Shown here piece by piece: positions 34,043 through 39,738 of a stretch of DNA of 64,000 nt; position 1 is the first letter of the stretch; every line of letters starts with the position of its first letter. The translations under genes and the position numbers were made by a program. Origin of the DNA: Psilocybe cubensis. Taxonomy: Eukaryota. The notes beneath the pieces are model-generated. The model saw nothing but the letters and a program-made list of their open reading frames with translations. It was not told the DNA's origin and made no database searches. Location of the stretch: contig CM039004.1 of the NCBI GenBank assembly GCA_017499595.2, positions 434,001 to 498,000 on the forward strand, read 5' to 3'.

Positions 34043-34790
34043 TCAGCTCTTTTTTGGAGGCTCTAGACGTCTCCTCAAACTGCATTCGACAACCCTCCGG
34101 CCATTTGCAATACCACTCGACTCCAACAAATCGTCATCCTGGTCGAAGTAGAGGCTCCAGACTCCAGGAGACTCCTCTAATGCCACGAAACCTTCCCATC
34201 CCTCCAGTACCATGGCACTCTGATCTGCCGTCCAATCCCAAGGACCGTGAATGTGATTCATGCTGGCTGTCTTATTTCCGTATTTCAGTTCCAAAGTATC
34301 GTCGTCGGCATATATCCAGTTCAGTTCCGGTGGATCACGGGAGATTGTGCTGACAAGTGATAGAGGTTTGTTCCCAACTGGGTACTCAAGGTAGAACCCG
34401 GAGAAAGGATGACCATCACTGAATATTCGATATTCAGGATCAGCTACGTCGAGATATAACTTCATTCCAAGAAGTGGTAAGTAACTTAAAAATACCATCT
34501 CAGGCGGGAACACTCACTTTCCCTTTTCGCAGGACAACGATCTTACCGTGAACCAGCTTTGCAGGAGATAGTCCTGGGGATGAGACGGGCATTGAACATT
34601 CTGCCACCAGATTGAACTTGGCGAGCCTGGGATCGGATTTATCTGGTTCGGCCGCCTTTCCGCCACCCCCACCTTGCTGTGAGCTGTTGACTCCTTGTGA
34701 AATGCCAACTACTGCTGTAGAAGCGGCTACTGCAGCCAAAGGGATGGACACAGAAGCAGCAGCTACACCGACAATACCAATGACCTCCAT
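34043..34790 (-). CDS. Conserved fungal hypothetical protein with hydrophobic N-terminal helix and Trp-rich beta-type domain
   Basis: Exon 34790-34518 joins in frame to exon 34459-34043 through a 58-nt GT-AG intron (..RKGK|LYLD..); motifs HPFSGFYLEYP, LVSTISRDPPELNWIYAD, GPWDWT, LEGWEGFVA. Confidence 0.85.
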
Positions 34791-35570
34791 GGTTTTGTGA
34801 TAGTGAATTAAGCAACGTCAAATCGAGAGAATAGGTTCCAACAGTATCCAGCAAACGAAATGCAAATTATGCAGTATGATGGTACTTGATGTCATTGTGA
34901 TATCATATCCATAGATATCAAGGTACGGTTTATTTTAGAAATTTGCTCGGGTCAGCTTGACCGTGCGAGAAAATAAGAAAAACAACAAATGCACCACGAG
35001 GTCCTGCAACTTGCAAGGCTGAGTTGACACGAGGCGACTTGTGGAGTTACATTGTGCGAGTCAATCATGACGACAAGTTATTCAGTTGGTTTGGAGGTTG
35101 GTCAATGCAAAAAGAGACGCTTGACATTGAATAACTTAAAAATAATTTGAGCAGTCGAGCTTTGACCTTCGAGAGTTGGGGTTCAATCTACTCGACACTA
35201 ATTACAATCAATTAAAAGGCTGATCGACGACGGAAAGGAATTATAAATTCATTTATTCCGCATTATAATGGCATTGATTGGCCAGGAACAATCTAGAAGT
35301 TTGTGTTCCTGGCACGTGGGCTTTCGTCAGGCGCTTATTTTTTCTCGGTTATTTTGAATGCCTGGACTTGGATCATTGGGGAAGAATCTCCACGAGCCAC
35401 CAATGACCCACAGAATTTGGCTTGTAGCGTAATCGTGGAGATTATGACATCTTCGTTTGTCGTTGGAATGTGATACAAATACCTGAATAGCTGCGCTCCT
35501 AGCTGCCTTTCTTCAAATTTCACTATACCATTAGCCCCGCTTAATTTCTACCACATCCACGACGACTGCT

Positions 35571-36050
35571 ATGTCTGACGAATCACGCTCTCGATCCGCC
35601 TCCCCAAACCCCATGGAACAGTGGGAGAACGACGACAACGCACCCCAATCACCACAACCTCAGCAGCAACAAGCTCCAAGCCGCCCAAGTCGCCGCCGCG
35701 CTCAGCCACAGCCACAGTCGCAGCAGCAGGTTCAACAGTACCAGCAGCCCCAGCAGCAGGGAGGAGGAGCCAATCAGCTTGCACAGCCCGCCGGTCAAGC
35801 AGGCCAGCTCCTCGGAAATACTCTCGGCCAGGTTACGGGCGGCGGCCAGCAATCCGGAAGCGGCGGCAAGGATACCCTCAAGTTGCGACTGGATTTGAAT
35901 CTCGATGTCGACGTTCAAATCAAGGCCAGAATTCATGGCGACGTAACTTTGTCTCTTCTGTGAGTTTTTTTTCTCTTGTTCTTCGAATGCTAGTTATCAA
36001 ACTGCAAACCCGAGGCAGTGACTGAAATGTACAACCGACTTAGTAACTAG
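35571..36050 (+). CDS. Small Q/P/G-rich low-complexity protein with C-terminal KDTLKLRLDLNLDVDVQIKARIHGDVTLSL motif (copy A)
   Basis: ORF 35571-35963; probable terminal intron 35960-36043 giving ...LSLLN*; paralog on the opposite strand. Confidence 0.88.
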
Positions 36051-36672
36051 AAAGCGGCCATTGGAGCGGCAGAACACGTCACTGGAAGAAGCCATTTCAG
36101 TTAACTTAGAGACTCATAATCACCTTCAAGATACTTCATGACCTGGAACGAACATTATTACCGTATTTTACTTGTTTCGAGATTTGAAATACCATTTGGA
36201 AACGACTCATAATAATTATGGACATTTTCGTACCTAACGATGACTTCAAATTAAGTGTGTGTGCCATACCCCATGAGCGCTGAGCTTTGAGGCGTGTCAA
36301 AGCGAAGTCGATTCCTTTGATAAATCTGAACTACAGTACTATGCTTTCACCATGTTAAAAATGGGATGTACTACCCGGAGTAGATACAGTATGATATCAC
36401 TTGTGGTAAGATATGGCGTCATCTCCTTCTCTGAAAACAACGGCTCGACGTATGAGTAAGATGTCATGTACGTGGGCGAGGACAGAGCACGGATTGTGTA
36501 CACAATGCCTCATTAAATAATGCTTGGAGTAACCCATAGGGAAATTAATTCGAATTATGTGTTACAGGCTACAAATGTCCAATAACGAATAGTAAGTAAG
36601 TCCATCGGCTCATGCGTAAAGTCGTCAATGGTTACATGCGATGCCAATAGTATTGCTCGTAACATGAACTCT

Positions 36673-37118: not shown

Positions 37119-37520
37119 TGTGGCTCAAGTTTCTTGACGAAGTCTTAATATGGAGAAGTAGGGAAGAGATTGAAAATTACATGACTTATGTACACTATTT
37201 CTGAGGAATTCTAAGGAGAGAATGATTAATTCGCGAGGAGCAGGCAGAGTGATGTCATCTTTTGTCTGTTCCTGAGTCCTTGATACGTAGTGGAACCGGC
37301 GTCTATATTCAGTACTCCAGCAGACTGGTTAACATACCACATGGTCCTATACCTCACAAACTGGAGCTATGAAGTCATATACTATCTTGCGTTTTCGACG
37401 GTCAATTCTGGGCGTCTGATGTCATTGGATATATAGCTTCAAGTAGAAAGGCGTTCCAGTCAAACAGATTATTCTTCAATCTTCGAAGTCAGAAGCACTG
37501 CACCAACCGCACACATAGCC

Positions 37521-37988
37521 ATGTCCGTCTCTGACCCATTGATTCGCTCTGATTCACTCTCTCTTATCACCGTCATGTGCCATAAAATTTCGGACGCAGC
37601 ACGATTCTACGTCGGCACTCTCGATTTCAATATCAAATGCGACGAGGAGATCAATGGAGAGCGCTTCGTCGTCGCTACACCACCCAATCTCGTCGAGTTT
37701 ACCCCACAGGCCTCTCTGAGGTTCAAAGAGGCGAAAACAGAGAGGGATAAACGAGCCGTGGGAAACCAAGCTGGGGACGGTGTATTTCTTCAAGTCGAGA
37801 CCGATTGCTGGAGGCAGGTCTACGAAAAGATCAAAACGATGGGCACCACAATTTTGGACAAAGAGCCGAGAAAGGGAAAGGATTATCAAGCGATTACGGT
37901 GTTGGACTCGTTGGGAAATAAAGTAGTCATTGTCGAGAAGACGACCACGACTCTAGGGAAGGTTTTCACCAAGGACATTGGACGGTAG
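37521..37988 (+). CDS. VOC/glyoxalase-bleomycin resistance fold protein, intronless
   Basis: ISDAARFYVGTLDF, RFVVATPP, VGNQAGDGVFLQVETD, LDSLGNKVVIVE follow the VOC pattern; single exon, 155 aa; TATA-like tatata near 37429. Confidence 0.8.
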   Translation: MSVSDPLIRSDSLSLITVMCHKISDAARFYVGTLDFNIKCDEEINGERFVVATPPNLVEFTPQASLRFKEAKTERDKRAVGNQAGDGVFLQVETDCWRQVYEKIKTMGTTILDKEPRKGKDYQAITVLDSLGNKVVIVEKTTTTLGKVFTKDIGR

Positions 37989-38825
37989 ATATAGTAGGGT
38001 TGTATGACGCAGAGGACTTTCCACATTATTTAGTGTACTACTTTCTCACTATCGCCAGATACTCCTATCGTCTCACGAATTTTGTATCATGAATATTAAT
38101 TAGGACTCACGCCTGCTTAACGTAGTCCCTGTGACACTTGATGAGCCTCTCTACAACACAAACACCACTGCCTAATGGTGTTGCACTGACTTGCATTGTA
38201 CCATACATAGCCGTTTTAAGTCATGGTGGAGCCTTAGTAAATCAATTTGTTGCTCACCGTCTTGTTCGCTGAACAGCTTCTGTTACCTTCTGTGTGGTCA
38301 AGTTCTACATATCCATTTCAGACACGAGTGTATGCAGAGGAAATTTACAATTCGATTTGCAATGTCTCCTGGGAAACTGGTCTGTGCGTGTCTGGAATCT
38401 GACAGGTGACTTGGCAGTGATGCAGTGCATGATACCCTCACGAAATTCTTCTAGAATAACCATGGTCAAACCGAGAACAATGACGCGCTGAAGTAGGACA
38501 TTCATTGTCTCGAAATTTTAAGCAGATGGACGTGGGGTAACTGAAAATATTGAGGCGATGATGTGATGAAGAGTTTGGGGAGATACTCCATTCATGACAG
38601 ATATATCGTCATGCCGTACATCCTTGACGATCAGTGTCCAGACTCGCAGTGTCAAGGGCCTGCGCGAACTGAATGGCTCATGATTCCGCCCACAGGCGCG
38701 CCTCAAGCGCATGCAAACGGATTCCAATAATGAACGGGTGCGCCACGGTGTGATGTCATGTTAAATGTACTGACTACATATAAAGGGTTGAAAGAGGGTG
38801 GGATAAGGGCAGAATATCATACAGC

Positions 38826-39738
38826 ATGTCCGAAATCGCAGAAAACTTGGGAATCAACACTCCGAACCAGTCTGTGCACGGAGAGACTCACGGCGATCAA
38901 TCGCAGAAGCAATCTCAAACCGACAAGGAGCTTGCTTTGCGCCTTTCTTCGCTCATCGAGGATGCCAACTCTCGAGTCACACCGTTGTGCCGCATGATTC
39001 GAAAGGTAACAAACAATTAGTTTCATTGGACCTTGGCATAACTAATGCCATTTGTATAGAACATTGAAAACTTTGAATCGCAAAAGGAAGACGACCGCGA
39101 CGAGCAGGCGCTGGTCAAGCAGGTTCGCCCACTCCTTGAGCAAGCGGAGAAGATCTTAAACGAGACCAACGGCGCCGTCAGAGGTGCAGACCCCGACAAC
39201 CGTCTCTCTAACAATGCCAAACGCAACATGCAAGACCACAAAGCTACGCCAGAGGAACAACGCCTTGCTGAAGCTCTCAAAGTGGTATGTTTCGTAGTCT
39301 CTCGTTCATCCAATTTTTGATAGCTTACATGGCTTTAAGATGGTTGAAGAAGTCGGAGGAACGATCGAATGGGCTCGAGACAAACTCAACAACTTCCCCA
39401 AAGCAAAGAGAGACCTTGGACCTTTGCTAGATGCCTTGGGCCGTAAGCATTCATGATTCTAGTCCATTTAAACGCAAATAACTTGTAGGATGTTATACAG
39501 AGCCATTGACTCAGATTGTTGGAGGCGTTGGTCTTCTTTTGGCCGGTGTCCTTAACCTCGTTGGAAATCTTCTCAAGGGTCTTGGCCTCGACGGTTTATT
39601 GCGAGGAATTGTCGCTGCCACTGTAAGATTATACTATCTTTCTTTTCCAATAAATCATTGACAGATCGCTAGGGCCTTGACAAAATATACAAGGGACTTG
39701 GTCTAGGAAACTGGCTTAGCATGGGAAGCAAAAATTAG
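38826..39738 (+). CDS. Stand-alone DUF6987-like helical protein (C-terminal domain of fungal 'LEA domain' proteins)
   Basis: Five exons: DKELALRLSSLIE...DEQALVKQVRPLLEQAEKILNETNGAVRGADPD...ATPEEQRLAEALK...PLTQIVGGVGLLLAGVLNLVGNLLKGLGLDGLLRGIVAATGLDKIYKGLGLGNWL; TATAAA near 38779. Family name from memory. Confidence 0.82.

Follow-up and report, generated by a model that had tools for sequence, protein, structure and literature searches.

Five small genes lie within positions 34043-39738 of the window (the whole 64-kb stretch of DNA that was analysed), and their strands follow the order - + - + + in the open reading frame and splice models. The first-pass annotation had described five small genes in 5.7 kb in this arrangement, and both coordinates and orientations are borne out. 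It had also remarked that four of the five have no or a single intron, unlike their neighbours, which holds as well: the coding regions of g1 to g5 contain 1, 0, 0, 0 and 4 introns, while the gene downstream of the cluster has at least three in RNA-like contigs. Within the cluster such contigs were seen for g1, g2 and g5 only, and the spliced ones confirm the gene models of g1 and g5. The features are as follows:

34790..34518 and 34459..34043, minus strand: the two exons of g1 (intron 34517..34460), 229 aa, from open reading frames, splice model and spliced contig
34791..35570, no strand: g1/g2 spacer, a divergent promoter region of 780 bp common to both genes
35571..35963, plus strand: g2, intronless, 130 aa, a Q/G-rich disordered chain with a conserved C-terminal tail, X2 contig
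36747..37118, minus strand: g3, intronless, 123 aa, paralogue of g2 and convergent with it
37521..37988, plus strand: g4, intronless, 155 aa, predicted VOC fold, uninterrupted open reading frame
38737..38784, plus strand: intron in the 5' UTR of g5, joint 38736->38785, GT..AG, one X1 contig
38826-39005, 39060-39284, 39340-39442, 39501-39622 and 39673-39738, plus strand: the exons of g5, 231 aa, DUF6987 protein

The divergent genes g3 and g4 are separated by a 402-bp spacer. A signal peptide-like start is absent from all five products.

The g1 gene has an intron of 58 nt (joint 34459|34518 in a spliced contig of run X1) and its product begins with a hydrophobic anchor (residues 1-34), which a linker joins to a beta-trefoil domain with an HPFSGFY motif. 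Earlier described as a Trp-rich protein with a hydrophobic N-terminus, it keeps the second attribute, residues 1-34 reaching a Kyte-Doolittle maximum of 2.28 over a 19-residue window; the first is only modestly deserved, because Trp makes up 5 of 229 residues (2.2%). Through the annotation of its homologues g1 is assigned to PF28325, Beta_trefoil_fun (Pfam 38.1; precomputed as PF28325.1), which is found on 120 of 120 g1 homologues among the matches listed, the best being 86% identical. A direct scan of g1 at E up to 1, against a Pfam copy that does not contain PF28325, returned no family, ricin-B and inhibitor families included, and no paper was found under the PF28325 name or accession. Modelling indicates that the domain adopts a beta-trefoil fold. 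The structure model of the Hypholoma homologue (P0057, 86% identical) reaches a pLDDT of 80.9 over its whole length and exceeds 90 across about residues 55-220; compared with known structures (VIA), it gives Z 10.8-8.7 over about residues 50-220 in 50 of the 50 matches listed, and those that were recognised are beta-trefoil domains. Foldseek by itself was weak on the same model (best E 8.8e-3). The Atlas label of g1-like clusters reads 'Fungal beta-trefoil domain-containing protein'. Among chytrids, ascomycetes and basidiomycetes, g1 sequences are 46-86% identical to that of the window. In the g1 tree the latter falls inside a basidiomycete-plus-chytrid clade (support 100/99), grouped with other Agaricales.

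The paralogues g2 and g3 encode low-complexity hydrophilic chains rich in Gln (21.5% of 130 residues and 14.6% of 123, respectively). The earlier reading of these as two Q-rich proteins with an identical beta-patterned tail was accurate: their final 31 residues are the same, even though 20 of the 93 underlying bases and 16 of the 31 codons differ, all synonymously, with not a single amino-acid change. The tail motif, LRLDLNL...HGDVTLSLL, is C-terminal in g2, and the beta-periodic hydrophobic moment of its strand of 20 residues is 3.79, a value equalled by none of 2000 shuffles (maximum 3.25). The family it defines is large (505 clusters at 50% identity) and strongly conserved, with 11 columns invariant among 24 aligned sequences. 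The tail forms the C-terminal end in 105 of 156 motif-carrying proteins, and family members are mostly small (median 137 aa among 171 examined). As to the models themselves, an X2 contig over 35465-35758 begins upstream of the g2 ATG, and all 123 residues of g3 make up the start of the public model JR316_0007692.

The g4 product, previously noted as an intronless VOC-fold protein, is indeed encoded by a single open reading frame and has, by comparison with the Atlas, the paired beta-alpha-beta-beta-beta VOC fold. Its ten best family-bearing matches in the Atlas are all in the PF00903 family or clan (feature score 0.94-0.96), and its structure matches at TM 0.76-0.81 over 130-140 residues, with TM 0.79-0.81 to small VOC clusters. 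By sequence it obtains 17.9 bits (E 0.004) with Pfam Glyoxalase PF00903, where the cut-off is 20.6, and E 0.15-0.42 with VOC proteins of the PDB. By eye, and unaligned, the His usual at the first-strand position of VOC enzymes is absent. The nearest Atlas clusters are bacterial; a search of 185,579 species genomes gave no close bacterial relative, with one partial match at 39%.

The last gene, g5, is classed by profile matches as a member of PF22485, DUF6987. Its exons 1-4 score 28.8, 105, 38 and 52.3 bits against a gathering score of 26 (E 1.3e-6, 6e-30, 1.9e-9 and 8.1e-14), covering model positions 2-186 of 200, and its homologues carry precomputed PF22485.2. Exon 2, used as query, matches P0177 (JR316_0007694, 231 aa) at 100% identity, and the spliced model agrees by eye with the alignment row of that protein; introns 1, 2 and 4 appear as GT..AG joints in RNA-like contigs, intron 3 as a loose end. 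Identity to the rows of alignment A4 is 54-91%, including one Mucoromycota member at 69%. The first-pass annotation had offered the labels DUF6987 and 'LEA domain' for this protein. The former matched, and some members are named 'Lea domain-containing protein' at source; LEA families of Pfam gave no match in any of the five exons at E up to 10, where only DUF6987 and chance-level hits appeared. The chain shows four long helices and, after them, a C-terminal segment that is hydrophobic (171-199, Kyte-Doolittle maximum 1.94), and a fold search retrieved generic helical bundles only. It had been portrayed as helical with a Gly/Leu-rich amphipathic end: helices and composition stand, while the end is hydrophobic and not clearly amphipathic, with an alpha moment of 0.19.

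Does this group of genes hold together elsewhere? We collected 80 metagenomic loci anchored on the tail, forming 62 groups after dereplication, of which 28 are assessable, having at least 2.2 kb of flank on at least one side of the tail gene; the loci are not phylogenetically independent, and their Atlas taxa are a lead only. When 1096 six-frame fragments covering the whole window were compared with these loci, all those that matched came from 34046-39317, and none of the other genes of the window recurs beside the tail gene. The beta-trefoil gene is present in 22 of the 80 loci (17 of the 62 groups). In 15 of the 28 assessable groups it is no more than about 2.3 kb from the tail gene; where both flanks reach at least 2.2 kb the count becomes 8 of 13, and where both reach at least 5 kb it is 6 of 8. 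Twelve of the 17 groups share the layout of the window, with the beta-trefoil gene upstream of the tail gene and on the other strand, and the arrangement varies among loci between divergent, tandem and convergent. The pairing recurs in two g1 clades that are deeply separated, one 30-46% and the other 65-69% identical to the window, and in some linked loci the beta-trefoil gene is nearest to Atlas clusters labelled mostly Ascomycota. A DUF6987 gene accompanies the tail gene in 4 of these 28 groups (L016, L023, L031, L055).

In named genomes, 18 of the 24 species present in both lists have g1 and DUF6987 homologues on equally long contigs; a common contig is here deduced from equal sizes, and 17 of the 18 positive species are Mycena and its allies Favolaschia and Roridomyces, where DUF6987 is multi-copy. 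The gene identifiers differ by no more than three in five Agaricomycetes, namely M. capillaripes, M. filopes, M. vulgaris, M. albidolilacea and Serendipita vermifera, and M. rosella has both on one 15.9-kb contig. Leucoagaricus pairs a g2 homologue, AN958_10668, with DUF6987 gene AN958_10671, much as P. cubensis has JR316_0007692 (tail gene) and JR316_0007694 (DUF6987). By contrast, only 4 of 13 species have g1 and g2 on a common contig. There is therefore a conserved neighbourhood of three families, beta-trefoil, tail and DUF6987, found in distantly related fungi. The proposal that the families of the cluster are also neighbours in other fungi thus survives for three of four: a g4 homologue adjoins a g2-type gene in L001, L002, L004 and L005 only, that is, 4 of the 80 loci and one close group, so that the VOC gene is a lineage-restricted neighbour, linked to the cluster only in close relatives. 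Adjacency of three families in many distantly related fungi suggests that the neighbourhood is a working unit.

It is conceivable, though we hold it unlikely, that these genes are neighbours by descent only, kept together by a bidirectional promoter or slow rearrangement while their products do not cooperate. Where the flank suffices, roughly every second tail gene indeed lacks a g1 neighbour (13 of the 28 groups, of which five, L008, L021/L022, L028, L066 and L072, have at least 2.2 kb on both sides), DUF6987 is on a different contig in Hypholoma, and the VOC gene points the same way. Yet ordinary synteny has decayed, since nothing else of the window is kept in the 80 loci, while the g1-tail linkage persists down to 30-46% g1 identity and in both g1 clades; nor would a single frozen promoter block explain the variety of arrangements.

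ATF-type factors bind the heptamer ATGACGT, and the g1/g2 spacer contains CRE/M26-like heptamers at 34889 and 35444. Across sequences with both genes, A[CT]GTCAT is counted 26 times over 18.9 kb of g1-g2 spacers and 55 times over the other 127.6 kb of these sequences; it is found in 12 of 12 g1-g2 regions, with 0 of 1000 shuffles attaining 26, but this is a lead only, because the motif was chosen after the fact, from a k-mer screen, and some occurrences may be start codons. In the window 6 of 26 occurrences fall within the 2.8 kb of spacers of the cluster, its copies being the ATGACAT variant. As for transcripts, the Coprinopsis cinerea g1 homologue CC1G_12264 and the next locus tag, CC1G_12265, both rank in the top 15 of genes expressed more in mycelium than in primordium (PMC3606632, Table 4), and the former is high while mycelium grows and absent from primordia; this record, the only one on expression that was found, is a single data set with two stages.

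That record bears on a role in dormancy, desiccation or spores, which had been put forward earlier and has no direct support. Here Q/G-rich chains together with a 'LEA-like' DUF6987 protein would shield the membranes of resting cells. The hydrophilic, low-complexity nature of g2 and g3, the source name of some DUF6987 proteins and the CRE-like heptamer in the promoters would fit. So would a table of the Cryptococcus biofilm proteome, which lists a DUF6987 protein (PMC12345193). Against this, the Coprinopsis homologue belongs to vegetative mycelium in the table cited above, g5 lacks any LEA match at the threshold given, and in fission yeast the label 'LEA domain protein' has been given to ish1. 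The latter is presumably a member of an unrelated family and, if so, the label is no evidence; we find this role improbable.

An amyloid or prion-like signalling or cell-death module, in which identical tails template each other or a partner, had also been suggested, and we give it little credence. In its favour, the terminal motif is short, beta-patterned and extremely conserved, the proteins that bear it are small and otherwise disordered, paralogues have it in identical form, and partner genes are adjacent. However, no NLR (NACHT/NB-ARC) gene was seen in the cluster of the window, and among the 35 of 80 loci with at least 2.5 kb, neither an NLR nor any recurrent family other than g1 and tail stands beside the tail gene, which leaves that reading unsupported. 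In all family proteins above 250 aa the motif is about 100 residues or more from the N-terminus (171 examined); only one exceeds 500 aa, with a weak F-box-like match as its sole one, and Pfam scans of ten extended members gave DUF3659 and this weak match, nothing else. No further copy of the motif was found in the window beyond g2 and g3. Finally, the HET-s motif consists of two pseudo-repeats, and the tail is a single unit.

Slightly less credible still would be a stored defence toxin pair, with a beta-trefoil targeting subunit and a membrane-inserting amphipathic beta-hairpin. The stems of beta-pores typically have strands in which hydrophobic and polar residues alternate, and the top fold matches of g1 include beta-trefoils of Cry35Ab1, lysenin, Tpp toxins and a Vibrio cytolysin lectin, with mushroom lectins and inhibitors in the same range (Z 10.4-9.0). 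But such matches arise from any beta-trefoil, at 4-11% identity; g1 carries a predicted membrane anchor and is, at the identities given above across three fungal groups, too well kept to resemble defence proteins, which evolve fast and are patchily distributed; the tail has a highly charged polar face, and the products have no signal peptide-like start. As to the 'possibly mobile' nature of the module, a mobile element or transferred island found no support: no repeats of at least 20 nt of note flank the cluster (the longest are the g2/g3 coding arms), by eye no transposase-like open reading frame lies beside it and the flanking ones resemble ordinary enzyme genes, its GC (0.45-0.48) is that of the flanks, and g1 groups with Agaricales inside its basidiomycete-plus-chytrid clade.

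Our preferred reading, a cytosol-facing protein set on a membrane surface encoded by a conserved neighbourhood, seems to us, as a whole, evenly poised between right and wrong. The core of that neighbourhood is a divergently transcribed pair, the Beta_trefoil_fun gene and one or two tail genes, often with the DUF6987 gene nearby. Basic residues follow the hydrophobic anchor of g1, so that by the positive-inside rule its beta-trefoil should face the cytosol; g2 and g3 are disordered chains closing in a strictly amphipathic beta strand. Taken with the hydrophobic segment of g5 and the lack of signal-peptide starts, this points to a set facing the cytosol on one membrane surface. All would come together at a single membrane or lipid surface inside the cell, where the anchored beta-trefoil and the DUF6987 protein would act as platforms, while the tail proteins would bind the surface or assemble there as partners. 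Their production would be tied to a certain physiological state (in Coprinopsis, vegetative mycelium) and may be governed by stress control of the ATF/CRE type. The gene models, folds, tail conservation and recurrent linkage are established here; the genes are probably co-regulated, and their products may have this topology, associate with a membrane and make contact with one another. The polymerising adaptors and membrane-acting proteins proposed earlier would likewise be inferences. A more specific and doubtful version is a three-component fungal system under ATF/CRE control, in which the near-invariant beta tail of about 28 residues is a dedicated docking or assembly element for Q-rich chains, recruiting them to a membrane organised by an anchored beta-trefoil receptor and the helical DUF6987 protein. 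If true, this would be a kind of membrane-surface assembly without described counterpart.

Comparison with known systems sets this reading in context. PF22485 is a family with no function assigned, its mention in the literature being the table entry above; the label of PF28325 denotes a fold only, and the N-terminal anchor of g1 and its linkage to tail and DUF6987 genes are outside that definition. With the VOC / glyoxalase-bleomycin resistance superfamily g4 shares the fold, with a sequence score under the Pfam cut-off. HET-s/NWD2-type pairs resemble the cluster in that a small protein, encoded beside a partner gene, has a conserved beta motif of short length at its terminus; they differ in that in the cluster neither an NLR partner nor a copy of the motif in the neighbour was detected. 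Among mushroom and fungal proteins, g1 shares its fold with MoErs1 (7vs2, Z 10.8), macrocypin (8ae5, Z 9.9) and a Polyporus lectin (3phz, Z 9.7), aligned over 130-140 residues at 3.3-4.0 A and 5-8% identity. Beta-trefoil lectins, inhibitors and effectors of this sort are soluble or secreted, whereas the first 34 residues of g1 are hydrophobic and its predicted orientation is towards the cytosol.

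The cluster comprises five small genes, and open reading frames and splice models bear out the order and orientation proposed for them in the first-pass annotation:

34790..34518 and 34459..34043, minus strand: g1, the Beta_trefoil_fun gene, 229 aa, one 58-nt intron
35571..35963, plus strand: g2, Q-rich protein with the conserved C-terminal tail, 130 aa, intronless
36747..37118, minus strand: g3, paralogue of g2, 123 aa, intronless
37521..37988, plus strand: g4, VOC-fold gene, 155 aa, intronless
38826..39738, plus strand: g5, DUF6987 gene, 231 aa, four coding introns

Four sequencing runs match the window. 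Two of them, X1 and X2, are taken as RNA, a guess made because they contain GT..AG joints absent from the DNA-like runs X3 and X4. The intron of g1 (34460-34517) is skipped exactly by an X1 contig; introns 1, 2 and 4 of g5 are seen as GT..AG joints in X1, X2 or both; and in the RNA-like contigs intron 3 of g5 appears as a loose end running on into the start of exon 4, with an additional intron in the 5' UTR. X2 also covers 35465-35758 at g2. Contigs of these two runs reach neither g3 nor g4, making them uninformative about the expression of either, and contig depths are unusable for ranking genes by expression. As for public Psilocybe cubensis models, 123 of the 123 residues of g3 are identical to the start of JR316_0007692, and JR316_0007694 (231 aa) matches exon 2 of g5 at 100% identity, which makes the window this species or one very near to it.

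Genes of the Beta_trefoil_fun, tail and DUF6987 families very probably form a conserved neighbourhood, and their linkage persists beyond all surrounding synteny. A tail-anchored search of JGI/ENA metagenome contigs matched 318 stretches; confirmation left 170, from which the best 80 were taken and compared with the whole 64-kb window, cut into 1096 six-frame fragments (E up to 1e-5). Fragments of g1 matched in 22 of these best 80 of 170 loci, those of g4 in 4 and those of g5 in 4, and at the same threshold the flanking genes of the window matched in none of the 80; HMM re-searches returned identical locus sets for the cluster genes. Once loci with at least 88% identical DNA had been collapsed, 62 groups were left, g1 being present in 17. 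Where one flank reaches 2.2 kb or more, 15 of 28 groups contain it; where both do, 8 of 13; and where both reach 5 kb or more, 6 of 8. The layout of the window, with g1 upstream and on the opposite strand, recurs in 12 of the 17 groups, the remainder having a tandem or convergent one. When the 35 loci of 2.5 kb or longer were compared all against all, no further widely recurrent family emerged: what recurred was the tail and two parts of g1, its domain and its N-terminus, the other clusters being overlapping reading frames by their look or confined to a few loci. No poly(A) end was found on the 45 loci shorter than 2.5 kb, which may or may not be transcripts.

In the tree of g1 the window groups with Hypholoma and Pholiota, within a clade of basidiomycetes plus chytrids (support 100/99) that also includes three of the metagenomic loci (L002, L006 and L007). 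Of the linked loci, twelve have no place in the clades of named sequences; ten of them make up one clade (99/91), to which L023 and L031, on a long branch, are weakly joined. The g1 proteins of divergent loci have 28-52% identity to any named protein and form unnamed clades of the tree. For L050, one of the twelve, the nearest clusters in the Atlas (a resource of protein clusters with features, structures and taxon labels) are Beta_trefoil_fun clusters labelled mostly Ascomycota, an ascomycete affinity that is a lead and gives no placement.

Named genomes tell of the same association, with shared contigs inferred from contigs of equal size among the best 120 matches of each list. Homologues of g1 and DUF6987 occupy one contig in 18 of the 24 species with matches listed for both, 17 of these 18 belonging to a single lineage (Mycena and allies) rich in DUF6987 copies. 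Their protein identifiers differ by no more than 3 in Mycena capillaripes, M. filopes, M. vulgaris, M. albidolilacea and Serendipita vermifera, and a 15.9-kb contig of M. rosella carries both; among the matches listed they are on separate contigs in six species, Hypholoma included. Among the matches listed, too, homologues of g2 share a contig with DUF6987 in 5 of 13 species and with g1 in 4 of 13; in Leucoagaricus, the g2 homologue is AN958_10668 and that of DUF6987 AN958_10671. The association of several families in other genomes, claimed at first pass, is seen for g1, the tail and DUF6987, in metagenomic loci and named genomes alike. As a conserved member of the module, g4 fares less well: in the best 80 of 170 loci its homologue stands beside g2 only in L001, L002, L004 and L005, which constitute a single group, with a g1 75-78% identical to that of Coprinopsis. 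The VOC fold of g4 itself is given by Atlas features (0.96) and by structure (TM 0.79-0.81), its Pfam score being under threshold. For a bacterial origin of this gene there is a single weak partial match (39% over 56 residues); a search of the species genome collection, by a method that detects close relatives only, returned no close bacterial relative.

Two further readings put forward at first pass are not supported. An amyloid-signalling module would call for partners, and the cluster has no NLR or other large partner, nor was a copy of the tail motif found in any neighbour. A mobile module fares no better, with no terminal repeats, no transposase-like ORFs (by eye) and no compositional shift at the cluster. 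Further copies of g1, g4, g5 or the tail are found nowhere else in the 64-kb window. The flanks hold what look by eye to be ordinary genes: laccase-like, aminotransferase-like, phospholipase B-like and KRE6/SKN1-like.

These flanks have features of their own. At 31471-31615 the contigs of all four runs break with differing loose ends, and a joint common to the four (31502->31592) skips 89 nt with the non-intron ends TG..TT; the probable cause is a repeat or polymorphic indel in the region of the laccase-like gene. By eye, from ORF translations, two aminotransferase-like paralogues (24094-25314, plus strand; 28090-29413, minus strand) are inverted about a mannose-6-phosphate-isomerase-like gene (25722-27008, minus strand). 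At 44395-46104, on the minus strand, a 569-aa ORF ends in what by eye is a KRE6/SKN1-like glucan-synthesis domain, and its long Ser/Pro/Ala-rich low-complexity N-terminal region coincides with a GC-rich block (0.613, 44-46 kb). Upstream of the phospholipase B-like gene, the poly-T run at 40033 varies in length between DNA runs, with TT inserted in X4 and loose T10 ends in both X3 and X4.

The product of g1 would be an anchored beta-trefoil. It had zero matches in a local copy of Pfam; PF28325, which the Atlas names Beta_trefoil_fun (Pfam 38.1), is precomputed on 120 of the 120 g1 homologues among the matches listed. Its fold was modelled via an 86%-identical Hypholoma homologue, with an alignment of 38 sequences, giving pLDDT above 90 over about residues 55-220. 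An exhaustive structural search with this model returned recognisable beta-trefoils throughout the top 50 rows (among them MoErs1, Z 10.8; Cry35Ab1, 10.4; the designed Symfoil, 10.3; macrocypin, 9.9), aligned over 109-150 residues at 4-11% identity; Foldseek gave weak matches, and a PDB sequence search with the g1 profile found no relative. The model has low confidence at residues 1-34, a strongly hydrophobic part (Kyte-Doolittle 19-residue maximum 2.28). Ascomycete homologues have a shorter hydrophobic stretch with a series of basic residues behind it, an arrangement that, under the positive-inside rule, would place the beta-trefoil in the cytosol. Gonapodya prolifera, of chytrid grade, carries two Beta_trefoil_fun paralogues (P0109 and P0113), 55-56% identical to g1, on one 514,928-bp contig, so that the family appears to predate the Dikarya. 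The g1 strand LYLDVAD (34459-34440, start of exon 2) resembles by eye the tail centre LNLDVDV (g2, 35886-35906) at 4 of 7 positions, quite possibly by chance.

The tail proteins g2 and g3 are Gln/Gly-rich, with no hydrophobic window. Their final 31 residues are identical; in the DNA of this shared end 20 of 93 bases differ, in 16 of 31 codons, all synonymously. Eleven positions of the tail are invariant among 24 members of the family, two from ascomycetes (Zalerion, Stachybotrys) and most from Agaricomycetes. Hydrophobic and charged residues alternate along a 20-residue strand, with a beta-periodic moment (3.79) reached by none of 2000 shuffles (maximum 3.25). HMMER searches with the 40-residue end against 1.84 billion representatives gave 505 clusters at E up to 0.001. 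In 171 family proteins examined (median length 137 aa) the pattern is matched in 156, and in 105 of these it stands at the very C-terminus; 51 are extended. At least P0001, P0005 and P0006 run 37-43 residues beyond the conserved end and are probably public models that splice out the true stop; JR316_0007692 (161 aa) is among the models extending beyond the tail, and g3 in the window (36747-37118) has its stop codon immediately after it. The family has a Pfam match on none of the listed homologues, and scans of ten extended members gave DUF3659 (P0336), a weak F-box-like match (P0314) and nothing else. In P0336 (486 aa) a pair of DUF3659 repeats (E 6e-17) comes after the tail; whether a true fusion or adjacent genes merged by annotation, this hints at another orphan family beside tail genes. 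Four of the best 80 of 170 loci, read by eye, have two tail genes (L008, L023, L031, L067). Duplicates are divergent, tandem or flanking g1 there and convergent in the window, and such differing layouts in unrelated loci suggest that the gene was duplicated independently several times.

The remaining partner, g5, belongs to DUF6987 (Pfam) and has four long helices (residues 22-182), then a Gly/Leu-rich hydrophobic segment at 171-199 (Kyte-Doolittle maximum 1.94). Fold searches gave generic helical bundles (E of at least 0.012) and no specific structural relative, and a PDB sequence search with its profile found no relative. The label 'LEA domain protein' spans different families and is borne by fission yeast ish1; Afu3g11550 and CGB_A9610C, known from literature under that label, were excluded from the DUF6987 evidence.

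As far as we searched, the literature on these families and locus tags consists of table listings, with the association undescribed. In Coprinopsis cinerea, Table 4 of PMC3606632 lists the g1 homologue CC1G_12264 at 139.2 versus 0 tags per 100,000 in mycelium versus primordium and the next locus tag, CC1G_12265, at 970 versus 2.1, both within the top 15 mycelium-over-primordium genes. At the Coprinopsis-like locus L002 the 5' neighbour of g1 is the tail gene. A k-mer screen of the g1-tail intervals of 12 non-redundant divergent pairs, some coding sequence included, drew attention to A[CT]GTCAT, a motif chosen after the fact, with 26 occurrences in 18.9 kb of intervals versus 55 in the other 127.6 kb; every one of the 12 intervals has it, and 0 of 1000 shuffles reached 26. 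In the window, 6 of 26 occurrences lie within cluster spacers, which total 2.8 kb; both divergent promoters and the stretch upstream of g5 have copies, and the copies in the window are of the ATGACAT variant. The heptamer ATGACGT is the M26/CRE site, to which Atf1-type bZIP factors bind. As a regulatory motif of the cluster, A[CT]GTCAT is a lead.

What might these proteins do together? The anchor of g1, the hydrophobic segment of g5 and an amphipathic tail, with no signal peptide-like start in any of the five products, suggest that g1, the tail proteins and g5 may come together at a membrane or lipid surface in the cytosol, where the tail might bind the beta-trefoil, bind lipid or self-assemble. 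This full picture of cytosol-facing products gathering on a membrane surface, drawn from sequence features, has at best an even chance of being right. The linkage matters in its own right: three uncharacterised families stay together at 30-46% identity while neighbouring synteny vanishes, Pfam knowing that of g1 only by a fold label and that of g5 only as a DUF. It is a concrete starting point for tests on three widespread orphan families together, and the tail ranks among the most constrained short motifs available for dissection. In fungi, non-enzymatic genes seldom form conserved clusters, and where they do, as in hydrophobin arrays, effector clusters and NLR-amyloid pairs, the clustering has usually been a sign of a common function.
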